Below, piece after piece: positions 3,622 to 59,654 of a DNA stretch of 64,000 bases. The DNA is taken from positions 50,648-114,647 of the forward strand of contig JAEUWB010000006.1 in NCBI GenBank assembly GCA_016786595.1, written 5' to 3'. Position 1 is the first letter of the stretch, and every line of letters starts with the position of its first letter. The DNA comes from a bacterium (lineage in GTDB: Bacteria; Bdellovibrionota_C; UBA2361; SZUA-149; JAEUWB01). The notes under the pieces were generated by a model, which made no database searches, had not been told where the DNA came from, and saw nothing but the letters and a program-made list of their open reading frames with translations. The position numbers were made by a program, and so were the translations under genes.

Positions 3622-5184
3622 ATGCATAGCTTGAATCATCGGCTGAAAATCACAACTTTAATCGCAGCAGCATTGATTAATTTCTCTCTGACGAATCCTT
3701 CCTTTGCAGACGAGATTAAACGCTACATCGTGTTTAAAAACCAAAGCAGGTCAGTCCTAGCGGCAACTTCTCAGCGGATTCTCGCCCAGGCGCAAGAGCG
3801 AACAACCTTAGCTCATCTCTCCTCAGAGATTGTCAGCATCACAGCAGAGCAAGCAAGTGCTTTAGCTGGCGATGCAAATGTCACTGAAGTAATCGCCGAT
3901 CGCGAAATCAAACTAGTACGTGACCCCAACGACCCACTTTATATCAATGGCTACCAATGGGGGCTTTCACAAATTAATGCACAAGGTCTTTGGGATAGTT
4001 CGACAAATACCTCAAGTGTTGTGATTGCTAATCTTGATACTGGAGTGGATTATACGCATCCGGATCTTGCGCCGAGTATCTGGAGAAATACGGCCGAAAT
4101 TTCTAATAATGGCGTGGATGATGACGGCAATGGCTTGATTGACGATCTCATCGGGTTTGATTTTGCCGATAACGATGCTAATCCAATTGACCTCGATGGT
4201 CACGGCACAGGAACAGCGGGGATCTCTGCGGCACGTGGGAATGACGGCTATGGAATGACGGGCGTTTCGTGGCAATCGAAAATTATTCCGCTCAAAGTTT
4301 TTTCTGACAATGGGCAAGGTTTTCTTTCGGCCGTATTGCAGTCGATCAACTATGTCATTCATTTAAAATCTACGGGTAAGGCCAATATCGCGCTACTAAA
4401 TATGTCCTTTGGTTACCAGGGCTATTCCAAAGCCATCGAAAATGCCTTTGCTGCACTTGATGCCTACGGAATCGTAGCTATTGCTGCAGCCGGCAACGAA
4501 GCAGTTAATAATGATTCGAGCCGCCATGCGCTTTATCCTGCTAGTTTCGACTTACCAAATATGATCTCAGTCGCAGCGAGCACCGAGAATGGCACTTTGG
4601 CATCCTTTAGCAATTACGGCTTGCGTTCGGTTGACCTTGCTGCCCCGGGAACGAACATCGCAATGCCGGTGCCGCTGAGCTATGGTTGGCAGACTCCATT
4701 TGGGCTCGCCGATGGCACTTCATTTTCGGCACCGATTGTTTCAGGCGTTGTCGCCCATATGCTTTCCCAGAATCCAGGCCTTACTCCATTACAAATCCGG
4801 GCGATTTTAAATAAAACGGTGACCCAAACTCCATCATTTCAAGGTAAAACTGTATCAGCTGGGGTTGTCAACGCTTCCAGGGCAGTGCAAGCATCAGTTA
4901 ATCTTCCACTTGCTCGGGTCACCGGCAAGAGCACTGCGCGCGTTGGTCGACGCAACAAGAATTTAGCGGGAGTGAAGGTGCGACTTGTCAGCGAAGATGG
5001 GCGCCTTGCTTATGAAACAAAGACAAATAGCTCTGGGCGCTATACTTTCAGCAACATCCCGCCAGGAAACTATTATTTAAGTCCATCACGAAGAAACTAT
5101 CGTTTTACCCGTTCGAACTACACAACCGGCGATATTATGGGTGGCACAGTTGAGGTTAAATTCTCAGCACGTCGGCGCCGTTAG
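3622..5184 (+). CDS. Secreted subtilisin-like serine protease (peptidase S8) with a C-terminal carboxypeptidase-regulatory-like beta-domain
   Basis: Catalytic-triad motifs DTGVDYTHPDL, HGTGTAGI and GTSFSAPIVSG. Signal peptide MHSLNHRLKITTLIAAALINFSLTNPSFA. ATG at 3622 is preceded by AAGGGA; the listed ORF start at 3577 is a GTG. Confidence 0.85.
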   Translation: MHSLNHRLKITTLIAAALINFSLTNPSFADEIKRYIVFKNQSRSVLAATSQRILAQAQERTTLAHLSSEIVSITAEQASALAGDANVTEVIADREIKLVRDPNDPLYINGYQWGLSQINAQGLWDSSTNTSSVVIANLDTGVDYTHPDLAPSIWRNTAEISNNGVDDDGNGLIDDLIGFDFADNDANPIDLDGHGTGTAGISAARGNDGYGMTGVSWQSKIIPLKVFSDNGQGFLSAVLQSINYVIHLKSTGKANIALLNMSFGYQGYSKAIENAFAALDAYGIVAIAAAGNEAVNNDSSRHALYPASFDLPNMISVAASTENGTLASFSNYGLRSVDLAAPGTNIAMPVPLSYGWQTPFGLADGTSFSAPIVSGVVAHMLSQNPGLTPLQIRAILNKTVTQTPSFQGKTVSAGVVNASRAVQASVNLPLARVTGKSTARVGRRNKNLAGVKVRLVSEDGRLAYETKTNSSGRYTFSNIPPGNYYLSPSRRNYRFTRSNYTTGDIMGGTVEVKFSARRRR

Positions 5185-6744: not shown

Positions 6745-6925
6745 GCTTAGGCTTGAACTTGAACTTCCTCTAATCCTGCTTCAATTCTCACAACAAGATC
6801 ATCGGCTAAGTATCATGATTGCATGGTTGTCACGTAGTCAGTCTAAGAAAAAGAATAAGTTCAAGCCTAAGCTGAAGAATTTCCGTCACTTGCAATCACA
6901 GCCTAGTTCTAAGCCTAAAGCTAAC
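6745..6925. repeat. REP-like palindromic intergenic element (copy 1 of >=7): left arm 'gcttaggcttgaacttgaactt', right arm 'aagttcaagcctaagc' plus 'ctaagcctaaagc'
   Basis: Inverted arms read directly. Lies between the convergent ppa and S1-protease genes. The overlapping 62-aa ORF 6743..6931 is a translation artefact of the repeat. Confidence 0.7.
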
Positions 6926-9708: not shown

Positions 9709-9786
9709 GCTTAGGCTTAACCCTACGCTTACGCCAAATGGGAAGGGTAAGGGAAAGTTCAAGCCTAAGCCTAAGTTTTCCTCGCA
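9709..9786. repeat. REP-like palindromic element (copy 2): 'gcttaggcttaa ... gggaagggtaagggaaag ... aagttcaagcctaagcctaag'
   Basis: Inverted arms with a purine-rich loop; lies between ndk and rlmN, which are co-oriented. Confidence 0.75.
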
Positions 9787-10317: not shown

Positions 10318-10560
10318 TTTTGAGGCGCATTATTATACCAGTTTGCAAAAAGATTCTGAATAAAATCACGATTTTTGCAAACCGGTATAATAGTTGTGTC
10401 GGAGACGCAACTAGCCAATTAATAGCGTTCCCCTCCATTAAAAACATGCAGATGCAAAGTTCATACATATAGAAGGACTGCGTTTTGCGTTTTGTAGCTC
10501 AGATATGATGTTTGCTACAAAATACGAATATTTACGGGGAAAGCTATAATCTTTTTTGTC
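10318..10560. repeat. Copy A of a ~240-bp two-hairpin intergenic repeat (family 2): 'attataccagtttgcaaaaag...tttttgcaaaccggtataa' and 'cgttcccct...ggggaaagctataat'
   Basis: About 75% identical to 52905..53140; contains two internal inverted repeats. Confidence 0.7.
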
Positions 10561-21893: not shown

Positions 21894-21937
21894 TTCCTTT
21901 TCGCTTTATTTAGAACACGTCAGGGAAGTTTTGATTA

Positions 21938-22052
21938 TGTTCGAGGTTGAGACGAGTTCGAGGAACGGGAATTGCGAGCAGCAGAGTTTATTGTAATAAA
22001 TGAGCAGCGCAGCAATGTCCCGTTCTGAAGAAATCGGCCAAGATCGGACATA
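21938..22052. repeat. MITE-like structured repeat (family 3), copy 1, inserted between lemA and its TPM partner genes
   Basis: Shares 'tttattgtaataaatgagcagcgcagcaat' and 'aatcggccaagatcggac' with copies at 23372 and 28411. Confidence 0.7.
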
Positions 22053-22064
22053 AGCAGAGCTTCC

Positions 22065-28410: not shown

Positions 28411-28576
28411 GAATACGGTTGAGATTGAGTCGATGTCGAGGAACGGACCTTAATACAGAGCAAGAAGCGCGCTTTATTGTAATAAATGAGCAGCGCAGCA
28501 ATCTCCCTGACGACTTGTGCGCCGTAGTCGGCAAAGCCGCATAGGCGGAAGAGATCGGCCAATCTCGGCCGTATTC
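28411..28576. repeat. MITE-like structured repeat (family 3), full-length copy 3 with 17-bp terminal inverted repeats 'gaatacggttgagattg' / 'caatctcggccgtattc'
   Basis: Contains both halves found separately in copies 1 and 2. Confidence 0.75.
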
Positions 28577-35493: not shown

Positions 35494-36543
35494 CTAGTAG
35501 CTCAATAATTTCTCAATAATATGCTGCCAAGTGCTATTGAAAGCTTGGCCGGAAGTCTTCGCGCCTTCACAAAGTTTAGTATATAAACTTGCGTCACTGA
35601 CCAGGCGGTTAATTCCTCGTGAAATTCCCTCTTCAGTTGGGTCACAGACCAGTCCATTTTCCTCGTGACGTACAAATTCTAAAACGCCACCACTATCGAG
35701 CGCCGTAATCACGGGCTTGCCACTCGCCAATGTTTCTAAAGTGACATAACCATAATCTTCATCATACGGTGCATAGTAGACAGCATAGGACCGGGCATAA
35801 AGCTCCAGAAGTTCTTGATCGGAAACCCGCCCCAGAAAATCAACACGACTTTGCATGTTATAAAGATCGAGTAAATCTTGAAAATGCTGTTCAATCCCCG
35901 GTTCATCTGGCGTGCCCACGATCTTAAGTCGTAGCTTATCTTGCACCCTCGAGAGGGATTTAATCATCAGGTCCACGCGCTTAATACTACAGAGTCTGCC
36001 AACTGAAAGAATATAACCTTCTTCGGGTGCATTCTGATAACGACCAGCAAGCGGTAACGGGGGCAAAAGCGGCGCACTTTCGATATTTAAGTAGCGCTTA
36101 AGGCGCTTACTCACATTCGTAGAAATCGTATAGCGATTCTTACACTCTTCAAGCGCTCTCGTATCTGCTTCCATGAGCATTTGTCGCAAGGCTTCATCGC
36201 GAGCCTCGGAACAAAAATCCCCAAAGCGCGTCTGATAAAGATCATACATTTGCCGATGCTGATGAATCAGCCACAAGCTTTTGCGTGGATGCTTGACGAC
36301 ATAGGACGGAAACTTAGTTGGGATTACGAGATCAACTTCTTTCCCACCAAAGCTGCGTAGATCAAGCGAGCGCCAGAGTGCCACACTTTTCAAGAGATCT
36401 TCCTTAGGGTCAGCAAAAAATGGCAGTTGCACTAGCTCCGTATTATGGCCCGCAGCCTTCAGTGCCTTAACCAGCCCATCAACGAGCACTTCCGCACCAC
36501 CACGCGAAAAAGGAACTTGCACTGCTGTAACGATAATATTCAT
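35494..36543 (-). CDS. Glycosyltransferase family 4 (GT-B fold)
   Basis: Conserved E-x7-E GT4 motif region near the C-terminus (...YDEDYGYVTLETLASGKPVI...). Confidence 0.75.
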   Translation of the reverse strand: MNIIVTAVQVPFSRGGAEVLVDGLVKALKAAGHNTELVQLPFFADPKEDLLKSVALWRSLDLRSFGGKEVDLVIPTKFPSYVVKHPRKSLWLIHQHRQMYDLYQTRFGDFCSEARDEALRQMLMEADTRALEECKNRYTISTNVSKRLKRYLNIESAPLLPPLPLAGRYQNAPEEGYILSVGRLCSIKRVDLMIKSLSRVQDKLRLKIVGTPDEPGIEQHFQDLLDLYNMQSRVDFLGRVSDQELLELYARSYAVYYAPYDEDYGYVTLETLASGKPVITALDSGGVLEFVRHEENGLVCDPTEEGISRGINRLVSDASLYTKLCEGAKTSGQAFNSTWQHIIEKLLSY

Positions 36544-36546
36544 CAG

Positions 36547-37932
36547 TTATTTTTTAACTACAATTGCAAAATCTTGAAAACCGTAGAGCTGCTTGTTTAA
36601 ACGGCGCAGGTTTTCGTTCAATTGATCAATTGCTTCCATAAAACGCGCTGGCAAATATTCTTCGAGGATTAATTCTTTAAGCATTGCCTCTTTGGGGTAA
36701 GGCGAACTGTAGAGAATTTGTTCGGGATTAAAACCTTTAATCTCTGCCATGAACTTCAAAGTTTCAGGGTGCAGTGGCCAAATATGTGTCGGGTCGCGGA
36801 AAAAATTCGAGGCCAAGGCAGTAAAGGACTCTGGATTAATTGTTTCCAGAATTAAGCGCGCTCCAGGCTTTAACTTCGCGTGCGCAAGTTCAAAAAACTT
36901 TTCTAACACTTTTCGCGGTAGGTGTTCGACTAATTGTGCAGCAAAAATTCCACCTGCAGAGTTGTTGGGTAGCTGTTCCAAGAACTTGATGCAATCCAGC
37001 GTAACTACATTTAAGCCCTTGGTTTTACAGATTTCTGTCATCGCTGGATTGAGATCGATGCCAATTGCCGGAATACCGCTGGCCTTAAGTAACTCTAAAA
37101 ATTCCCCGCGCCCACAGCCAAATTCAAGAACTTCAGCGGTAGCGTTACTAAAAAAATGTAAATATTCGCGCATCCTCTCGCGAATTAGATGCTCTGAACC
37201 GCGATAACGATCTTCAAGCACAAGATATTCTAAGTCAGACGGCTCAAAGCTTGTCGGCTGATCTTGACCTTGCTGAAGCATTGCAGCTGGAGTCTCGGAA
37301 GTATTTATTTTAGCACGTGCAATCATCAGCGTTGTGCGTTCGAGGGCATGTAATTCATCCCGTAAGCCTTCAATCCGGTCTTCAAAAACACGCAGGCTTT
37401 CCGTACGCACCAGCTCACGGCCAAGTGAGCGCATCTCTCCATGCAGCCGCTCCAAATCTTCACGCAGTAGCTGGTTCACGTCACGATCAATTTTCTGAAT
37501 AATTCTGGTCCAGACATCGGTATCCCGAGCATCGATATAGCGCGCAGTTTGATTGAGAAAGCGTACTAGATTCGACTGGAATTTACGCTCGCGCTCAAAA
37601 TACTCTCCCAGCACAGTGTTCCAGATCATATTAACGAAAAATTTCTTGAACTTTACAATCAGCCGACCAATGATTGGTCGATGCGATGAAATTTCTGACG
37701 GCACGGCCCAGTCATGCCAATGCGAATTGAGGTAATTTAACTCTTCACTTAAGATTACTGGATTATTCGCAGCCCGATTCTGCGACAATTGAATTGTTGG
37801 TGCAGCTGTTGGAAGTTGCTCTAAATCGCGCTTAATTTTTTCACGAATCTCTGCCATTAATGCTTCTACATTAACCGACGGTGTCGTGGGTTTCCGATCT
37901 TGCTCAGTATTATCTTTAACAGCTGCTTGCAT
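36547..37932 (-). CDS. Class-I SAM-dependent methyltransferase with a ~250-aa N-terminal coiled-coil region
   Basis: VLEFGCGRGEF motif I; overlaps the downstream GT4 gene by 4 nt. Confidence 0.7.
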   Translation of the reverse strand: MQAAVKDNTEQDRKPTTPSVNVEALMAEIREKIKRDLEQLPTAAPTIQLSQNRAANNPVILSEELNYLNSHWHDWAVPSEISSHRPIIGRLIVKFKKFFVNMIWNTVLGEYFERERKFQSNLVRFLNQTARYIDARDTDVWTRIIQKIDRDVNQLLREDLERLHGEMRSLGRELVRTESLRVFEDRIEGLRDELHALERTTLMIARAKINTSETPAAMLQQGQDQPTSFEPSDLEYLVLEDRYRGSEHLIRERMREYLHFFSNATAEVLEFGCGRGEFLELLKASGIPAIGIDLNPAMTEICKTKGLNVVTLDCIKFLEQLPNNSAGGIFAAQLVEHLPRKVLEKFFELAHAKLKPGARLILETINPESFTALASNFFRDPTHIWPLHPETLKFMAEIKGFNPEQILYSSPYPKEAMLKELILEEYLPARFMEAIDQLNENLRRLNKQLYGFQDFAIVVKK

Positions 37933-40180: not shown

Positions 40181-40203
40181 GGCGTATCTGAAAACGCGAT
40201 TTG

Positions 40204-40284
40204 GCTTAGGCTTGAACTTATACTTCCCCTTAAGCTTTTTTAAAAAAGGTTAAGGGAAAGGGAAAGGGAAAGTTCAAGCCTAAG
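40204..40284. repeat. REP-like palindromic element (copy 3): 'gcttaggcttgaactta ... ggttaagggaaagggaaagggaaag ... ttcaagcctaag'
   Basis: Read directly. Confidence 0.75.
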
Positions 40285-52904: not shown

Positions 52905-53140
52905 CTGTTCACCGATATATTATACCAGTTTGCAAAAAGATTTTGGATCAAACACAGGGTTTTTGCAAACTGGTATATAAGTTGTGTCGTAGACGCAACC
53001 AGCCAACAAATCGCGTTTCCCCTTTATAAACAAGCCCGTGCAAAGCTTATGCACTCAAAGGCAATGTTTTTTATAACTCAGCTGCGTTTGCTATATATTC
53101 AAAATATTTAGGGGAAACGCTATAATATTTTTTCGTAATC
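52905..53140. repeat. Copy B of the ~240-bp two-hairpin repeat (family 2)
   Basis: Aligns with 10318..10560; flanked by the inverted 'gtcattgcga' / 'tcgcaatgac' sequences at 52876 and 53180. Confidence 0.7.
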
Positions 53141-53331: not shown

Positions 53332-54072
53332 CTAGGCCATAGTCCGCGGATCCGTGAGTTCTTGATCAGCGGGTTCTCGATCCCTAGGTGCCTCATTCTG
53401 GTCGACTTTGGGAAATGTTACCTGGACATTAAAGCCCGGACGCATTTCCTTCAAGGCTTGCGCATGGTCTGCCGCAGAATGCGAACTACCTAGAAACGCC
53501 GTGCCGATGATTGCAACAACGAGCTCAGAATTTTGATCTTGAATGAATCGCGCTTGAATCACACGATACTCAATCTTATCCCGATCTACGGATTTCAACG
53601 TGACGATTTTCTCGTAATAACGCATGCCATTGCTTACCTGACCATCCATTGTCCCGTTACTGACATCGATGATTTTCAGATCCTTTCGAATCTGGCGGTA
53701 AGCCCCAATGAACGCAGCAAAGTAAGTCAGAGCGCCATCTTTGAAGGAGCTACTGCCAAAATCAAGCTCCGAGTAATTGACTGTGATTGTCCCAGATCCA
53801 CTGCGTCGAGCTAAATCCCCAAAGGCGGGATCGCTCAGCCGATCTTGTTCCTGCTGATAGGAGCGCCGGATCGTGCCCCAATCACTAGCAAATCGACCCT
53901 CGACGACGATTCCGGCTGGCGATTCGAATGTGTAATTGCGATCGAACAGGGCCACTCGCTCGATCGTTATTATCAGTAGGCTCGTGAGTATGGCTACCAA
54001 AGGCCAATACCAGAGCGGTCGTCCTCGATATGTTGATGATGGTGGGTTAGTCCCCAGAGATTCTTCTTGCAT
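53332..54072 (-). CDS. Hypothetical membrane-anchored protein (246 aa)
   Basis: One N-terminal TM helix; no recognisable domain. Confidence 0.5.
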   Translation of the reverse strand: MQEESLGTNPPSSTYRGRPLWYWPLVAILTSLLIITIERVALFDRNYTFESPAGIVVEGRFASDWGTIRRSYQQEQDRLSDPAFGDLARRSGSGTITVNYSELDFGSSSFKDGALTYFAAFIGAYRQIRKDLKIIDVSNGTMDGQVSNGMRYYEKIVTLKSVDRDKIEYRVIQARFIQDQNSELVVAIIGTAFLGSSHSAADHAQALKEMRPGFNVQVTFPKVDQNEAPRDREPADQELTDPRTMA

Positions 54073-54275
54073 TTCAAAACCTTCCTTATTTTATTTTGCA
54101 CCAGTTCAGTGCTGGAGCTTAGCTTACACAAAGCAAAACTTGAGCACTGAGATGAAAGCGAAATACCCAAAGAAAAGGTTTTGAAAGAACTGCAAAAGAC
54201 TATAACGAAGAAAATATAGAAATAAAAGTGGAGGTTGGTAGCACCAAATAACAACCTCCTGAGACCTTGAGTTAC

Positions 54276-56102
54276 TTAAGCAACGTGCTCAGTGAAAATC
54301 TTCCACCGCACAAAACTGCTGACACCTTCACGATCCGCTCGAGGAGTGCTTCTGACTTTTTCTCCGGATTTAACTCCGTCGAGTTTAGACATAAAGCGTT
54401 CTCTCTGGAATCCACTCTTTGTGAGATCGGTAACCACAAAGTCAAACGTCAATGCATCACCATGGGCGACAATCCGCGTTCCATAGATCGCTTGATGTCC
54501 CTGCCAGTGCTCAATTTGGCCATCTCCCATGGCAATGATGTCTTCTTCAAGTTTGCTAAATGGAGTGCCGGCCGTGTTTTGATTGGCACGACGCCAGTCA
54601 ATGTCCATTCCATCTGCGATGCGTAAAAGCGCGCAAACAAAAGCGGCCTTAAGATCCTTTGGAAAGGGCATACCCCCTCCATGATAGAGGCAAATTTCGG
54701 CCAGTTGTCCGACTTCCTCATCAGTGAGGAGCCCCTCAAACTTGCCGTTCTTGGCCATTTCCAGAATCATGTCATGTGAATACTCGTAGTGGTGCTTACG
54801 AGCGTCCTCGGGCGACTTATTCTTCATGCCATGACCGATGTCGTGCAGAGCTCCAGCAAGACGTAACAGCAAGAGCGCTCGATCGTCGAGGTACTTGAAG
54901 TTACCACCTTTCCTTCCAAAGAAAAGCGAAGCCAAGGACTCGACAATCTTGAGGACCCTGATCACGTGACGTTGAGTGTGTTCGGTCATGTACCAGGGCG
55001 CATGAACGCGCGTCATGATGCCAAGCCCAAAACTCACCATATCCTTAGCAGTAAGTTCCGCCTCTTCCGGAATCGGCTGAGCGAGTTTACGAGCGATTTC
55101 TCGCATCAGCTCACTCTGATCTTGACCTTCTTCGAGTCGAAGCGTGACTGCATCCTGCTGACCGCGCAATTCATATTCCGACAAGCGCCAGCGCGGAGGC
55201 TGAGCATCTTTCTTCCAATGACGAAGCACAACGAGCTTTGTTACCCCGTTTTGCATTGCGCCGATCGCATAGTGGCAGTCATGCTTTTCCGCCAAGGCTT
55301 CCAGTTGCCGGTAACCCCAATTGGAATAGAGCGGTTCCTGACAAATCAGCACTCGGTATTCGCCAGCAACGACCTCGATCGCCGATTGCTTGACGATGTC
55401 CGGAAGCGGATTTGTTTCGGCAAGACCAAGCAGCCACTTCCAAGCGTCCTTATCCCTACGACGAGTATCGTTCGCGATGCAGACTAGTGCATTGAGAGGT
55501 GCTTCTCGCACGACAACGTCAAGGCCATGAGCAATACGGACCTCTGATGACTTGGCGTCTCTGTGGTAATTATCGCGGTCACAAATGGCCCCGATTCTTC
55601 CCCAACGCCGAGCATGTTTGTCGACTTGTCCATTCGACCCCCAAGCACCGGTAAAGCAAAGCGCAGGATTTGAGACAATCACAACCTTTGCCCCAGCCTC
55701 AACAAGCGGAGCCCAATTGATTTTCGTGCCCCGGTGATGGTCGATGATTTCAACCAAAGTACCTGTGCGCGTGAGTGCTTTGACTTTAGCCTGCACTTGT
55801 TCGACAAGCCCCTGGTCGGAGGACGGTAACGGTGTTTCGAGGATGATGATCCTACGAGTTCTGCCCGGATCAACTTGAAGTGCAAGGAAGGTGTCACGCC
55901 AGAAACTTTTGGGGTTCCCAGTTTGTTCTTCGCTGCAAACAACGTCTACGCGTTCCTTTGCCGCAAGAAGTTGCCGAAAGGTAATCGCCCCCATTGCAAC
56001 ACCATGAGCATCGGGACGCACGAAAAGAATCGTCTCTCGCCGATGGAATGGCAAGCTGCCATTTTGCTTTCGCTCCCGTGGAGCGCGTGTAGTTTTTTTC
56101 AT
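54276..56102 (-). CDS. DHH-family phosphoesterase fused to an HD-domain phosphohydrolase (unusual two-domain predicted nuclease/phosphatase)
   Basis: IIDHHRGT (DHH motif) in the N-terminal half; LAGALHDIGHG (HD motif) in the C-terminal half. Start taken at ATG 56102 (MKKTTRAP...). Confidence 0.65.
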   Translation of the reverse strand: MKKTTRAPRERKQNGSLPFHRRETILFVRPDAHGVAMGAITFRQLLAAKERVDVVCSEEQTGNPKSFWRDTFLALQVDPGRTRRIIILETPLPSSDQGLVEQVQAKVKALTRTGTLVEIIDHHRGTKINWAPLVEAGAKVVIVSNPALCFTGAWGSNGQVDKHARRWGRIGAICDRDNYHRDAKSSEVRIAHGLDVVVREAPLNALVCIANDTRRRDKDAWKWLLGLAETNPLPDIVKQSAIEVVAGEYRVLICQEPLYSNWGYRQLEALAEKHDCHYAIGAMQNGVTKLVVLRHWKKDAQPPRWRLSEYELRGQQDAVTLRLEEGQDQSELMREIARKLAQPIPEEAELTAKDMVSFGLGIMTRVHAPWYMTEHTQRHVIRVLKIVESLASLFFGRKGGNFKYLDDRALLLLRLAGALHDIGHGMKNKSPEDARKHHYEYSHDMILEMAKNGKFEGLLTDEEVGQLAEICLYHGGGMPFPKDLKAAFVCALLRIADGMDIDWRRANQNTAGTPFSKLEEDIIAMGDGQIEHWQGHQAIYGTRIVAHGDALTFDFVVTDLTKSGFQRERFMSKLDGVKSGEKVRSTPRADREGVSSFVRWKIFTEHVA

Positions 56103-56107
56103 TTTTT

Positions 56108-56173
56108 CACCTGTTCTCAGAACCGAAAACAAGTTGGGCGAATTGTTATTATTTGCGGTTAAGAGAACAGGTG
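56108..56173 (-). promoter_or_regulatory. 5'-UTR hairpin: perfect 11-bp stem ('cacctgttctc' / 'gagaacaggtg') that sequesters the AGGTG Shine-Dalgarno of the DHH-HD gene
   Basis: Loop of 44 nt; the stem ends 5 nt before the ATG on the minus strand. Confidence 0.5.
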
Positions 56174-56469
56174 AACTGGAAATGAAAAAGAAATTAAAAA
56201 AACCTAAATGTGCTACCAACTTCCTTCGCGAATTTTAGAGCCCAAATAATCCGCTCTTCCGCGAAGGAAAGGTATAAACTTCTACCCGTAATAGCCTATA
56301 AAAATCAGGCCATAATTTAGCATAATTTTAGTGCTTTTTCAAAGCGTGCCTTTTTAAGGGTTTTATGTTTAGTTTCAGGTGAAAAAATTAATACGGGTAA
56401 AGAATTAAATTACAGTCTCGTAGAGACGTTCGATTTGACTCTGTAAGACTGTAACTTACGATAATTCAG

Positions 56470-57029
56470 GTTTTATATTCGTTGAAGGCTTTGCGTTTAA
56501 GGAAACTTTCGTCACCTGATATGTATTTAGTTTACCATTAGCTTTGAATTTTTAATCTGAGAGTTCAAAGCTGACGGTGACTGAACTAACGAGAAGCGTA
56601 ACGCTCGGTGATGTAAAAAAAATCACCGAGTTTGCCCATACGCATCGTAGCCAGGAACGTGCCTCACTCTTTCAGCCTTCGAGAGCATAGGGGCAATTTT
56701 GTCAGCCATAGATGAGGAATATACCAATAGACTTGGTCTCATCTGTTGTCCCAGGCTTCAGCTTACCTCTCCACTGAAGTCTGGATTCTTTTTATTAACT
56801 GCGAGAGGAACTCATCCTCTCTCCTCCACTACTACCACCTCCCCTTGCTGTTGCACCCCCACTTCTAGCGAGTGGGAGGTTGGTAGACTAAACTGACGAA
56901 TTTCTGACCGCAATTCAACACCTAAAGGCCACGCAAAGATGGTCACGGTTAGTCAAGCAAACAAATAGGTGGGGGGCATCTCCCGACGGCTAGCTGCTCC
57001 TAACTAGCATGTCTCCCACCATTTTTTCC
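56470..57029 (+). ncRNA. Candidate ~560-nt structured non-coding RNA, class unknown
   Basis: The whole 1.37-kb region has no ORF of 60 aa or more in any frame. It holds a run of stable hairpins at 56745..56900, a candidate promoter (TTGACT 56435-56440, N19, GATAAT 56460-56465) and a strong plus-strand terminator at 56968..57029. Strand and ends are inferred. Confidence 0.3.
56968..57029 (+). terminator. Rho-independent terminator: GC-rich nested hairpin 'ggtggggggcatctcccgacggctagc...gctagcatgtctcccacc' followed by 'attttttcc'
   Basis: Read directly; the T-run is only on the plus strand. Confidence 0.6.
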
Positions 57030-57444
57030 GTCTTCTATCCTTGCAGTGAGCCCTCCGTAGCTCTCTTGCCATCTGCCTTTCCTCGTCGAGTTCACTTGAC
57101 TTTTGAGACGTGGCAGAACACGGCCCGTGGGTAGAGAAGCCATCTTACAGCTTCACTGGAGTGCTTTCCTCCGCTACCCCGGGTTCGTTTAAGGTTTATA
57201 AATTTTTCCTCCCTAGCCCTTTTTAACCGTCAAAGGGCAGTGTAAAGCCCGGAAGTAGCAGTGCTGGCTAAGTCACCTAGTCCAGATCACGAGGATCCCG
57301 CGGCAAACAGATCCTCAGCTACTCTCCGGGCCCGTTGAAAAAATTATGGTTATAAAATCGTACGTTACAGTCGCTTCCCTATTGACCATATCGCACTTGT
57401 AATTTTTTTTGCACCTCGTGTCGTTGGATTGCGAAAAGATTGAA

Positions 57445-57578
57445 GCTTAGGCTTGAACTTTTACTTAACCTTATCCTGCCCCTTCCTTTTTCAATTAGGG
57501 GTGGACTCTATTCGGGACAGGACAAGATCAAATTCAAATAGGGAGAAGGATAAGGTTAAGTTCATGCCTAAGCCTAAG
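57445..57578. repeat. REP-like palindromic element (copy 7, long nested-hairpin variant) 8 nt downstream of the TLP stop codon
   Basis: 'gcttaggcttgaactt' / 'aagttcatgcctaagcctaag' with an inner 'ttaaccttatcct' / 'aggataaggttaa' pair. Confidence 0.75.
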
Positions 57579-57585
57579 TCCCGAT

Positions 57586-58332
57586 CTAAATCACTTCTTC
57601 AAGCAGCTTGAGATAATCTGCATCAGACTCAGGCAATTTTGTCTCAACGAGGAATTTGCCATTCTTTTGAATTACTCCTGCGCCGCGCAAAATCCAACCT
57701 GGAGTTTTATCGGTGATCAATCCGCGCTCGCGGGCAAGTGACTCACGTTCTTCAAGTAAGAGGCGGCCAATTTCAGCGTTAATCTCTTGAGGAGATTTCC
57801 CTTCACGTTTTAAGCGATCACTGAGTAAGGCACCGGTCAAATTACGCATCGCAACTTTGCGCTGCCAAATAAAATAGTCGGCAACATGCTCCCGCGAGGG
57901 TAATTCTAGAAGCTTGGTATGAAAAAGCACGCAGAGCCCCAGGGCTTGTGCAAAATTCAAAGCCGCAGCACTAGCTAAGCCCGAGACTAGGCGGCCACGT
58001 TTACGCGGATTCAAGCTCTCGTTTAAATCAAAAAGTAGCGAGATTTCGTCGCCGTGAATGAAAGAGTAATTGATTTTATAGCCAACATCGTAAAGCGCTT
58101 TGGCGGTTTCAACTAAGGCATCAAATACTCGCTTGTCGTAAGGGTAGTCGATATCGGCTTTATCCCAGGCAGCGCCGTAACGCCTTCCATCCATGCGAAT
58201 GATTAGATGCGTATCAGGGAAAACTAAAGTATCGCCGTAGTTTTCAAAGCGTTCAAACAGGCGTTGGTATTCGGCTAACGTCTTTGGCCCATCTTGATCG
58301 GCTTTTGCATCGCGTTTACGTTTTTCTGTCAT
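57586..58332 (-). CDS. Thg1-like protein (TLP): tRNA-His guanylyltransferase family 3'-5' nucleotidyltransferase
   Basis: Thg1 hallmark motifs in the correct spacing: IIRMDGRRYG (hh-R-h-D-G-R) and FIHGDEISLLF (S/G-D-E-x-S-h-h-F carboxylate pair); 248 aa. Confidence 0.65.
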   Translation of the reverse strand: MTEKRKRDAKADQDGPKTLAEYQRLFERFENYGDTLVFPDTHLIIRMDGRRYGAAWDKADIDYPYDKRVFDALVETAKALYDVGYKINYSFIHGDEISLLFDLNESLNPRKRGRLVSGLASAAALNFAQALGLCVLFHTKLLELPSREHVADYFIWQRKVAMRNLTGALLSDRLKREGKSPQEINAEIGRLLLEERESLARERGLITDKTPGWILRGAGVIQKNGKFLVETKLPESDADYLKLLEEVI

Positions 58333-58523
58333 GGAATTGATCTCGATTATTTATTAACCTTTAAAGCACAGCTAACAACTAGCTCCGAGTTGCAGATCTT
58401 TCGGCTGGGCCGTAGTAAAACAAAGCTTTACTACGTGCTCGCTCAAGATGACAAGCAATTGATATTGGTGCAGTTTTGAGACGAAAACAAGGCGCAAAAA
58501 TTTTTTAGGGCCGACTTTATTAC

Positions 58524-58802
58524 AATAAACGTAAGATTTTTAGCCCAAAGACGAGGCGCGGGAATTTTTGAGGCTTTCCAATGTATGTAAATACATGAAA
58601 GACGAGAAAATTTCCCGTAACGACGTATTTGGCAAAAAGCGTAGATAAAAAGCTTAACAAACGCTAATAAACGTAAGATTTTTCGCCCAAAGACGAGGCG
58701 CGGGAATTTTTGAGGCTTTCCAATGTATGTAAATACATGAAAGACGAGAAAATTTCCCGCAACGAAGTATTTGGCAAAAAGCTTACGTTTATTAGCGTTT
58801 GG
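58524..58802. repeat. Tandem direct duplication of a 117-bp structured unit (period 142 bp, 3 mismatches) immediately 3' of rpsI; copy 2 is flanked by a 20-bp inverted repeat
   Basis: Units 58524..58640 and 58666..58782, with a 25-bp spacer. Each unit contains a 'cgggaattttt...aaaatttcccg' long-range stem. ORF 58443..58868 is an artefact. Confidence 0.8.
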
Positions 58803-59190
58803 AGAATTGCGTAGACTTACGAGCCTTATGCCGACCTGGCTTTTTACGCTCGACCTTACGCGCATCACGAGTAAGAAAGCCTGCTTTCTTCAAGGTAGCT
58901 CGTAATTCGGGCTCAACCTTAAGTAATGCACGGGCAATGCCAAGACGCACAGCACCAGCCTGTCCCGAAGCTCCGCCACCAGAAACATTAACTTTAAACT
59001 CGTAGCTATTTAAGCGCTCGGTAAGTTCAAGTGGTTGACGGATGATTAATTGAGAAGTCTTACGTGGAAAGAACTGTGTAAATTCGCGGCCGTTGACGAC
59101 GATTTTACCTTCTTTGCTTTTCTTGATGTAAACGCGAGCTGTTGCTGATTTACGTCTGCCAGTGCCTGTGATGTTTTGAACGCGTGCCAT
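58792..59190 (-). CDS. rpsI: 30S ribosomal protein S9
   Basis: Ends ...[14 protein letters not shown]; 132 aa. Confidence 0.95.
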
Positions 59191-59216: not shown

Positions 59217-59654
59217 TTACTTAGTAGTAGAAATGATTTTTGGTTGCTGCGCAGTGTGCGGATGCTCAGCTCCCGCATAGACTTTAAGCTTCTTGATTTG
59301 TCTTTTGCCTTGTGCGGTTTTTGGCAACATTCCCTTCACGGCATCAATAATGATGCGGTCAGGATGACTGCTCAAGCGCGTGCGTGCGGTTTCAGATTTC
59401 ATGTTACCAACAAAGCCAGTGTGCTTGTGGTAAATTTTCTGATCAAGCTTATTACCGGTGAAGCGTGCCTTTTCAGCATTGATCACGACAACAAAGTCGC
59501 CAGAGTCTTGATAGCCAGCAAAATAGCTTTTGTCTTTGCCACGTAGTGTCGTTGCAATTTTAGAAGCTAGTCGACCAACTACTTGATTTGTTGCATCGAA
59601 TAAAACCCAGCCGCGATTCTTAATAACTTCTTGTTCAGTAAAAAACTTAGTCAT
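59217..59654 (-). CDS. rplM: 50S ribosomal protein L13
   Basis: [31 protein letters not shown]... is a canonical L13 N-terminus. Confidence 0.95.

Follow-up and report, generated by a model that had tools for sequence, protein, structure and literature searches.

The stretch of DNA analysed here, referred to as the window, is 64 kb long. In it rplM and rpsI, the latter encoding ribosomal protein S9, are followed on the same strand by a gene for a Thg1-like protein (TLP). The co-directional rpsI and TLP genes are separated by a spacer of 459 nt, and in this spacer sit two nearly identical repeat units, unit 2 next to rpsI and unit 1 on the TLP side. The initial annotation had considered the units as possible regulatory sites for a divergent TLP promoter. 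That arrangement is not found: TLP is co-oriented with rpsI on the minus strand and lies downstream of it. The features of the locus, from rplM onwards, are the following (R1 is the covariance model described below).

59217-59654, minus strand: rplM
58792-59190, minus strand: rpsI (ribosomal protein S9), open reading frame, Pfam Ribosomal_S9, E=2.8e-47
58658-58801, minus strand: unit 2, complete family member; R1 match at 58665-58794, fold z about -10
58776-58801: unit 2 proximal outer-stem arm, covering the rpsI SKR codons and stop; 26 nt, 96% complementary to the distal arm
58723-58738: unit 2 apical hairpin, ATGTAT-loop-ATACAT
58658-58683: unit 2 distal outer-stem arm, in which the final 10 nt of rpsI recur in inverted form
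58644-58657: inter-unit spacer, resembling neither flank
58522-58649, minus strand: unit 1, family member without the 5' strand of the outer stem; R1 37.7 bits; direct-repeat copy at 58524-58643
58581-58596: unit 1 apical hairpin, the same as that of unit 2, 142 nt apart
58517-58530: 14-nt palindrome (TTATTACAATAAAC), probable apex of a decayed third copy
58474-58509, minus strand: putative degenerate 3'-arm-like remnant of a third copy, from local alignment; no detection by R1
57586-58332, minus strand: TLP gene, Pfam Thg1, E=1.6e-15; "hypothetical" at NCBI, MBL7661501.1
54276-56219, minus strand: HD-CE-domain gene

The repeat pair behind rpsI

A repeat search of the window yields a direct repeat of 120 nt per copy (58524-58643 and 58666-58785) with 97% identity. 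Its core of 117 nt (58524-58640 versus 58666-58782) differs at 3 of 117 positions, as initially described, and Tandem Repeats Finder (score 497, 1.8 copies, period 142) and BLAST of one copy against the 64-kb window (E=1e-56) agree with this. None of the three differences is compensatory. Each unit is composed of an inverted pair of arms, 40-45 nt long, with a small apical hairpin between them, which corresponds to the inverted repeat around a palindromic core of the first description. Over its entire 144 nt, unit 2 is an imperfect palindrome (BLAST against its reverse complement gives 76% identity), with a predicted fold of -57.8 kcal/mol on the minus strand (z=-10.4) and of -62.4 kcal/mol on the plus strand (z=-9.4). 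The 20-bp inverted repeat said to bracket this copy and to overlap the end of rpsI is borne out as well, the outer 20 nt of the two arms being perfectly complementary. The right arm includes the rpsI codons Ser-Lys-Arg and the TAA stop (58792-58801, the stop itself at 58792-58794), with the final 10 nt of rpsI serving as the 5' strand of the outer stem. All of these constrained nucleotides (10/10) are mirrored 124 nt downstream in the distal arm. The coding end is common to relatives (TCCAAACG(C/T)TAA), which suggests that the coding side is original and the distal arm a derived inverted copy of it.

The 22-25 nt between the units and their outer flanks have no mutual similarity; the pair is thus no plain tandem duplication. 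Moreover, a third, older copy seems to have left traces next to unit 1. The 14-mer TTATTACAATAAAC, with 3 matches against 0.03 expected, is also the apex of two further family members (at lemA and at 28.4 kb, see below), and 58517-58530 is therefore probably the apex of a decayed copy. The adjacent stretch 58474-58509 aligns with a score of 27 as compared to 17.2 +/- 2.3 in shuffles, a value reached in 0 of 300, and together the palindrome and this stretch look like the remnant of such a copy. The tandem duplication of the initial annotation is therefore real as a direct repeat, but not as a simple doubling of unique sequence. Its statement that the locus is not a CRISPR array holds, as only two units are present.

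Two ENA metagenome contigs, L001 and L002, also contain this spacer of 459 nt, with the pair of copies differing at the very same three positions. L001 differs from the window by 4 SNPs in 5.8 kb, all outside the spacer; L002 matches the window throughout, apart from a scaffold gap of 100 N in the middle of copy 2, and copy 2 is also where a Logan contig, L011, breaks off. The pair is hardly an artefact of one assembly. We regard it as scarcely credible that the pair is just a recent, locus-specific tandem duplication of a unique rpsI 3' untranslated region (UTR), or an assembly artefact, which the initial annotation had named as a reservation. The high identity of copies 142 nt apart would agree with such a duplication; against it stand the spacer and flanks, which are not duplicated, the members that R1 detects at other loci and in other genomes, and the same structure in other assemblies, one of them from a SNP-differing strain.

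A dispersed family of hairpin elements

The gene order common to the relatives is polA, an ECF sigma factor gene, two or three small genes, rplM and rpsI; what follows is variable. In the collections searched the nearest S9 protein is 72-74% identical. Four relatives show the following arrangements behind rpsI.

L014: a canonical bidirectional intrinsic terminator, then convergent pepF
L013: the next gene, beginning 9 nt past the rpsI stop
L012 (S9 71% identical): a 190-nt nested hairpin starting from the rpsI stop codon, -92 kcal/mol, z=-6; element at 4404-4596
L090 (S9 74% identical): a 145-nt palindrome starting from exactly the TAA, with 38-nt arms, 92% complementary; element L090_A at 1475-1619

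L090 carries in addition a second, partial tandem copy (a module of 5' arm and apex; period 127, 86% identity; both copies within 1475-1690), so that multiple copies behind rpsI recur in a second lineage. The stem of L090_A is preceded by a run of seven A and followed by a run of seven T. The window units align with L090_A, L090_B and L012 along the 5' arm and the apical hairpin, and the latter covaries between the three genomes (ATGTAT/ATACAT in the window, ATGTGC/GCACAT in L090, TTTAC/GTAAA in L012). A hidden Markov model (HMM) of these arms and hairpins led to two further full members in the window, and a solo arm was found behind ndk.

21931-22057, minus strand: lemA member, 7 nt past the lemA stop and 37 nt ahead of a TPM-domain gene; R1 132.9 bits
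28414-28541, minus strand: 28.4-kb member with an internal insertion, 36 nt past the stop of a 212-aa gene; R1 47.8 bits
9839-9889, minus strand: ndk partial member (5' arm only), 6 nt past the ndk stop, in the orientation of the gene

The lemA member (21974-22052) was found at E=1e-9 before it entered any model. Likewise, the 28.4-kb member (28460-28507) was found at E=6e-4 before its use in training, and at E=4.9e-7 with an HMM that excludes it; the 212-aa gene in front of it closes a metal-efflux cluster, and an HMA-domain gene lies downstream. For the ndk solo arm BLAST gives E=1.9e-4 and a four-arm HMM built without it E=7e-4. Four loci in the 64-kb window thus carry no fewer than 4 full and 2 partial copies, and two other genomes contain further ones. 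In substance, the unit is the dispersed repeat that the initial annotation had set against its own proposals.

With profiles of sequence alone, the AT-rich copies at rpsI and ndk could not be linked significantly to the other subfamily (E=0.29), and a structure-aware covariance model, R1, was therefore built. It was trained on the lemA, 28.4-kb, L090_A and L012 elements only, with lineage-specific insertions trimmed beforehand, and comprises 39 pairs, 17 of them with compensatory changes in the training alignment. The window was scanned with filters off. Unit 2 is recovered over the full length of the model on the minus strand (58665-58794, 64.7 bits, E=2.3e-13) and scores 23.1 bits on the plus strand; unit 1 (58522-58649) reaches E=7.3e-7 on the minus strand and is absent on the plus strand among matches at E<=10. 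All other hairpins and palindromes of the window stay at or below 17 bits on either strand. In 588 kb of other loci the sole matches are the L090 and L012 elements, without a false match. By this model, which scores sequence and structure jointly, the rpsI pair belongs to the family, and we identify the units as two adjacent copies of a previously undescribed family of dispersed hairpin repeats of about 130 bases.

A family element forms one continuous imperfect hairpin of 127-145 nt with a stem of about 39 bp and an apical hairpin of 5-6 bp. It is longer where it carries internal insertions, which lie at differing sites (22 nt in L090_A, about 37 nt in the 28.4-kb copy, 66 nt in L012). Insertions between members do not come in multiples of three, and a six-frame chimeric protein query against 5.8 billion clusters returned no protein match, so that the elements are non-coding. 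A type I toxin or small peptide was rejected as well: the candidate frame has no ribosome-binding site, encodes a peptide that is not hydrophobic and has no homologues, is not kept across the family, and differs between the two copies by two synonymous changes and one nonsense change. Conserved blocks are TTGGCCGA...CTTC...GAACGGGA.ATTGCTGCG.TGCTCAT on the 5' side and TCCCGTTCCTCGA..TCG.CTCAA on the 3' side.

In the alignment fitted by R1, 89% of the cells are paired and 24 of the 39 pairs are changed on both sides. The covariation score of this model-fitted alignment is 0.49 as compared to 0.19 after shuffling (reached in 0 of 500) and about 0.1 with the partners slid, and a small MAFFT alignment that is not model-fitted gives the same picture. 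The apical helix (helix 2) is 100% paired, with changes on both sides in three of its five pairs. Compensatory changes in palindromic DNA can arise from DNA-level processes without selection on an RNA. By minimum free energy, the antisense strand is 4-15 kcal/mol more stable than the sense strand in 6/6 full members, whereas wobble counts in the model alignment lean to the sense strand (12 G-U versus 5 A-C). The antisense-favoured fold, despite a sense-specific orientation and sense-specific R1 scores, may reflect loop energetics or a role of the other strand.

At all six loci in the three genomes examined, the 5' end of the element lies 0-36 nt past a stop codon, and in every case the element reads in the same direction as the gene preceding it (rpsI, once in each genome, then lemA, the 212-aa gene and, as a partial copy, ndk). 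At rpsI in each of the three genomes, R1 position 1 coincides with stop-codon base 1 or 2. Several copies are intercistronic by gene order, namely those between lemA and the TPM-domain gene, the efflux cluster and the HMA gene, ndk and rlmN, and rpsI and TLP. The rpsI elements of L012 and L090 are 65-73% identical to the lemA copy of the window, but only 41-42% to its rpsI copy; the family therefore has a consensus that persists between genomes, and its copies have not merely been inherited locus by locus. Sequence conservation amounts to about 70% across order-level distances.

Origin and possible role of the elements

We consider it somewhat better than even that the units represent dispersed, lineage-conserved hairpin elements placed behind stop codons, and that at this locus the 3' hairpin insulates rplM-rpsI from TLP. 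The element would be co-transcribed with the upstream gene and fold into its stem of about 39 bp. Located 3' in the rplM-rpsI transcript, such a stem would block 3'-to-5' exonucleases, and possibly it would also serve as a partial terminator or as a target of a double-strand RNase. A strongly expressed ribosomal operon would thereby be uncoupled from the downstream TLP gene. The 2.6% divergence of the two copies would result from a recent local duplication inside a cluster that contains an older copy remnant. The perfect 20-bp outer stem of unit 2 may have arisen by inverted copying of the rpsI end (palindrome extension, template switching) or by selection for pairing. A structured 3' UTR of the rplM-rpsI operon, one of the options of the initial annotation, comes near to this reading, except that the units are not specific to the locus.

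A selfish or neutral element of the MITE or REPIN type, tolerated only at gene 3' ends and forming a hairpin without any role as RNA, is possible as well, although we think it rather doubtful. The pair would then have arisen by insertion into or beside an existing copy, or by local duplication. The family is indeed a dispersed palindromic one with terminal inverted repeats (26 nt, 96% in unit 2; 38 nt, 92% in L090) and, at 127-145 nt, within the MITE size range of less than about 300 bp. Clustered copies, decayed remnants and internal insertions at differing sites fit such an element, the greater proximity of L012 and L090 to the lemA copy than to the rpsI copy would fit a conserved master sequence, and the same genome contains further palindromic repeat families. 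Nevertheless, no target-site duplications flank unit 2, the lemA copy or L090_A, the flanks of unit 2 being inverted copies, and Pfam reveals no transposase, RAYT or integrase among the approximately 60 ORFs (>=120 aa) of the 64-kb window. The uniform sense orientation together with conservation over order-level distances would be unusual for neutral DNA. Finally, since unit 2 takes its proximal arm from the rpsI coding sequence itself, its stem is not an inserted terminal repeat.

Conversely, the elements could be a dedicated, orientation-specific RNA signal acting in cis, a proposal that we rate as unlikely. Anchored at the stop codon, where the terminating ribosome would melt the base of the stem, the signal would be read by a conserved trans-acting RNase or RNA-binding protein and would set operon polarity and mRNA 3' ends. 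If true, this would explain the conservation of sequence and structure across order-level distances, including that at rpsI, and would define a new class of bacterial 3' or intercistronic RNA element.

The initial annotation had also proposed a pair of tandem small RNA genes. With an own promoter for each unit, such genes would find some support in a weak sigma-70-like TTTACA-16 nt-AAAAAT in each unit on the gene strand, and in the high degree of structure of the units. Promoter-like sites, however, number 6 as compared to 4.6 in shuffles, and terminator-like sites likewise occur at shuffle frequency; no terminator follows the units, and no Rfam family matches them in the search that the initial annotation had advised. 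Other members lie 7-37 nt from their flanking genes in likely operons, which leaves no room for independent small RNA genes. Taken together, we consider this explanation improbable. Rfam gave nothing at gathering score in the window, with hairpin noise only at E<=10 (56000-58900), and hairpin noise only at E<=1 for L090 and L012. No tRNA or tmRNA was found.

Regulation at the level of DNA, with a dimeric protein binding the arms or the core and controlling transcription of TLP, is still more improbable in our judgement. It could draw on the 190 nt upstream of TLP, in which there is no sigma-70-like promoter, the only candidates lying within the units, and on the conserved stem sequences (GAACGGGA / TCCCGTTC). 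Yet members precede unrelated genes (the TPM-domain gene, the HMA gene, rlmN, an M28 peptidase gene, a convergent his operon) and are tied to the upstream stop codon, not to the downstream start. By eye, no match to dif or a LexA box was seen.

Several known repeat classes resemble the family in part. ERIC, Correia and SPRITE elements have documented effects on transcript 3' ends, stability and RNase cleavage, and ERICs at the 3' ends of Yersinia genes alter transcript levels (PMC10969869). ERICs are imperfect palindromes of about 127 bp, located in transcribed intergenic regions or gene 3' ends, conserved across related taxa, variable in copy number and, in some copies, interrupted by internal insertions; in all this they are like the elements described here. 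However, they belong to another host lineage and lack sequence similarity: blastn of unit 2 and the lemA copy against 5,426 E. coli genomes gave no match at E<=0.01, and by sequence the family is thus not ERIC, REP or BIME. The present elements, unlike ERICs, are sense-oriented and abut stop codons at six loci, without a TA target duplication. Correia elements of Neisseria are co-transcribed with their neighbours, can carry promoters and, as paired repeats, are cut by RNase III (PMC10969869). Compared by description only, their size of about 100-200 bp and terminal inverted repeats of about 26 nt recall the 26-nt arms and 20-bp perfect stem of unit 2, whereas here there is no TA duplication, and in unit 2 one arm is part of the rpsI reading frame.

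REPs have been hypothesised to act in mRNA stabilisation and termination (PMC3733652), and a REPIN is described as two inverted REPs with a spacer that form one long hairpin (PMC3337134). REP, BIME and REPIN sequences are extragenic palindromes at gene 3' ends or between cistrons, often in tandem clusters, as are the elements found here. A REP unit measures 20-40 nt and is a short palindrome in its own right. The arms of the present elements are not, a single arm folding like shuffles (z -0.4 to -1.4); each element is one continuous hairpin of about 39 bp, and the window contains no RAYT gene. 

An intrinsic terminator consists of a short G+C-rich stem directly followed by a U-tract. SPRITEs and intrinsic terminators share with the family a hairpin right behind the stop codon; L014 has its terminator at the same position, and L090_A has its T7 tail. 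The window units differ in their AT-rich and very long stems, with a T-run on the 5' side and an A-run on the 3' side, and in lacking a 3' U-tract, and some members lie in likely operons; a terminator search of the units gave only weak 7-pair sites at shuffle frequency. Integron attC sites, which carry the cores RYYYAAC and GTTRRRY at their two ends, are likewise imperfect palindromes (60-140 nt, e.g. the Vibrio cholerae repeats) that follow ORFs in a fixed orientation and fold better on one strand. Here, however, R''/R' cores at both ends, an integrase and a cassette array are missing, and dispersed housekeeping genes flank the elements. As an attC candidate the pair was rejected: only one GTTAAGC lies beside unit 2, without an inverse core, and there is none in the other members.

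The family is best read as a new family of intercistronic palindromic elements, similar to ERIC, Correia and REPIN elements. Nucleotide searches of the collections brought up no match above chance level. With the spacer and the lemA copy as blastn queries, neither plasmids nor phages nor E. coli genomes returned a match, and the same was true of JGI metagenomes searched with a pattern for the R arm and of viral contigs searched with a conserved-block pattern. The exact 20-mer of the unit had one chance match among GTDB species genomes, in a coding region of an unrelated MAG. A degenerate arm pattern gave 63 metagenomic and 10 viral single matches, none of which extends past the pattern, so that all are at chance level. 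If our reading is right, this lineage and its distant relatives have an equivalent of their own to the ERIC, Correia and REP repeats, unusual in its strict stop-codon placement and its deep conservation. Such elements influence the relative expression of neighbouring genes, break assemblies and are easily taken for locus-specific regulators, as happened at this locus. R1 permits a census of the family, and with it a test of function versus mobility as the cause of its conservation.

TLP and other unusual stretches of the window

The closest homologues of TLP (<=46% identity) are found in a tsaD-rsmA-TLP-methyltransferase-glycosyltransferase context without such an element; counterparts of the methyltransferase and the glycosyltransferase are located in the window at 35494-37932. 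TLP thus seems either to have moved to its present site in this genome or to have been separately acquired. Neither the homologue neighbourhoods nor a text search gave evidence of a link between TLP and the element, and no TLP-associated RNA was found in the literature text search. TLP, the HD-CE protein and a 246-aa protein have no PADLOC or NCBIfam matches. Compared with L014, approximately 5.5 kb, reaching from TLP to the 246-aa gene, are inserted between rpsI and pepF. Window positions 53332-58332 (TLP, an ORF-free stretch, the HD-CE protein and the 246-aa protein) are missing between rpsI and pepF in L012, L013 and L014, and by comparison with these three the region 3' of rpsI is a hot spot of variation.

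Between TLP and the HD-CE gene, within an ORF-poor gap (56220-57585), lies a stretch of approximately 926 nt (56447-57372) with no ORF of more than 65 aa. In G+C content it resembles coding DNA, and its minus strand is rich in G. A 16-nt inverted repeat (15/16 complementary) brackets it and closes the predicted fold, which has a z of -5.25. Comparison with Rfam, Pfam fragments, plasmids and phages gave no match, and L001 as well as L002 breaks off inside the stretch, at window position 56759. It may represent a large RNA missing from the annotation or the decayed remains of a non-autonomous element. A strong 95-nt hairpin (56095-56189) covers the region where the HD-CE gene is predicted to start with TTG. 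Translation probably begins at the ATG at 56102 instead, and a protein look-up returned neither of the two candidate products.

A second, unrelated palindromic family occurs at 6745-6872, 9709-9770, 40200-40284 and 57437-57587. Its arms of 35-45 nt are conserved (GCTTAGGCTTGAACTT..., with an AAG recurring at 6-nt intervals), and its centre varies. Each of the four copies is found at the 3' end of a gene, among them one directly adjoining the stop codon of TLP and one in the ndk spacer, next to the solo arm. A third, small type of palindrome (TATACCAGTTTGCAAAAA / TTTTTGCAAACTGGTATA) is present at 10331-10392 and 52921-52977, one copy between divergent genes and the other behind pepF.
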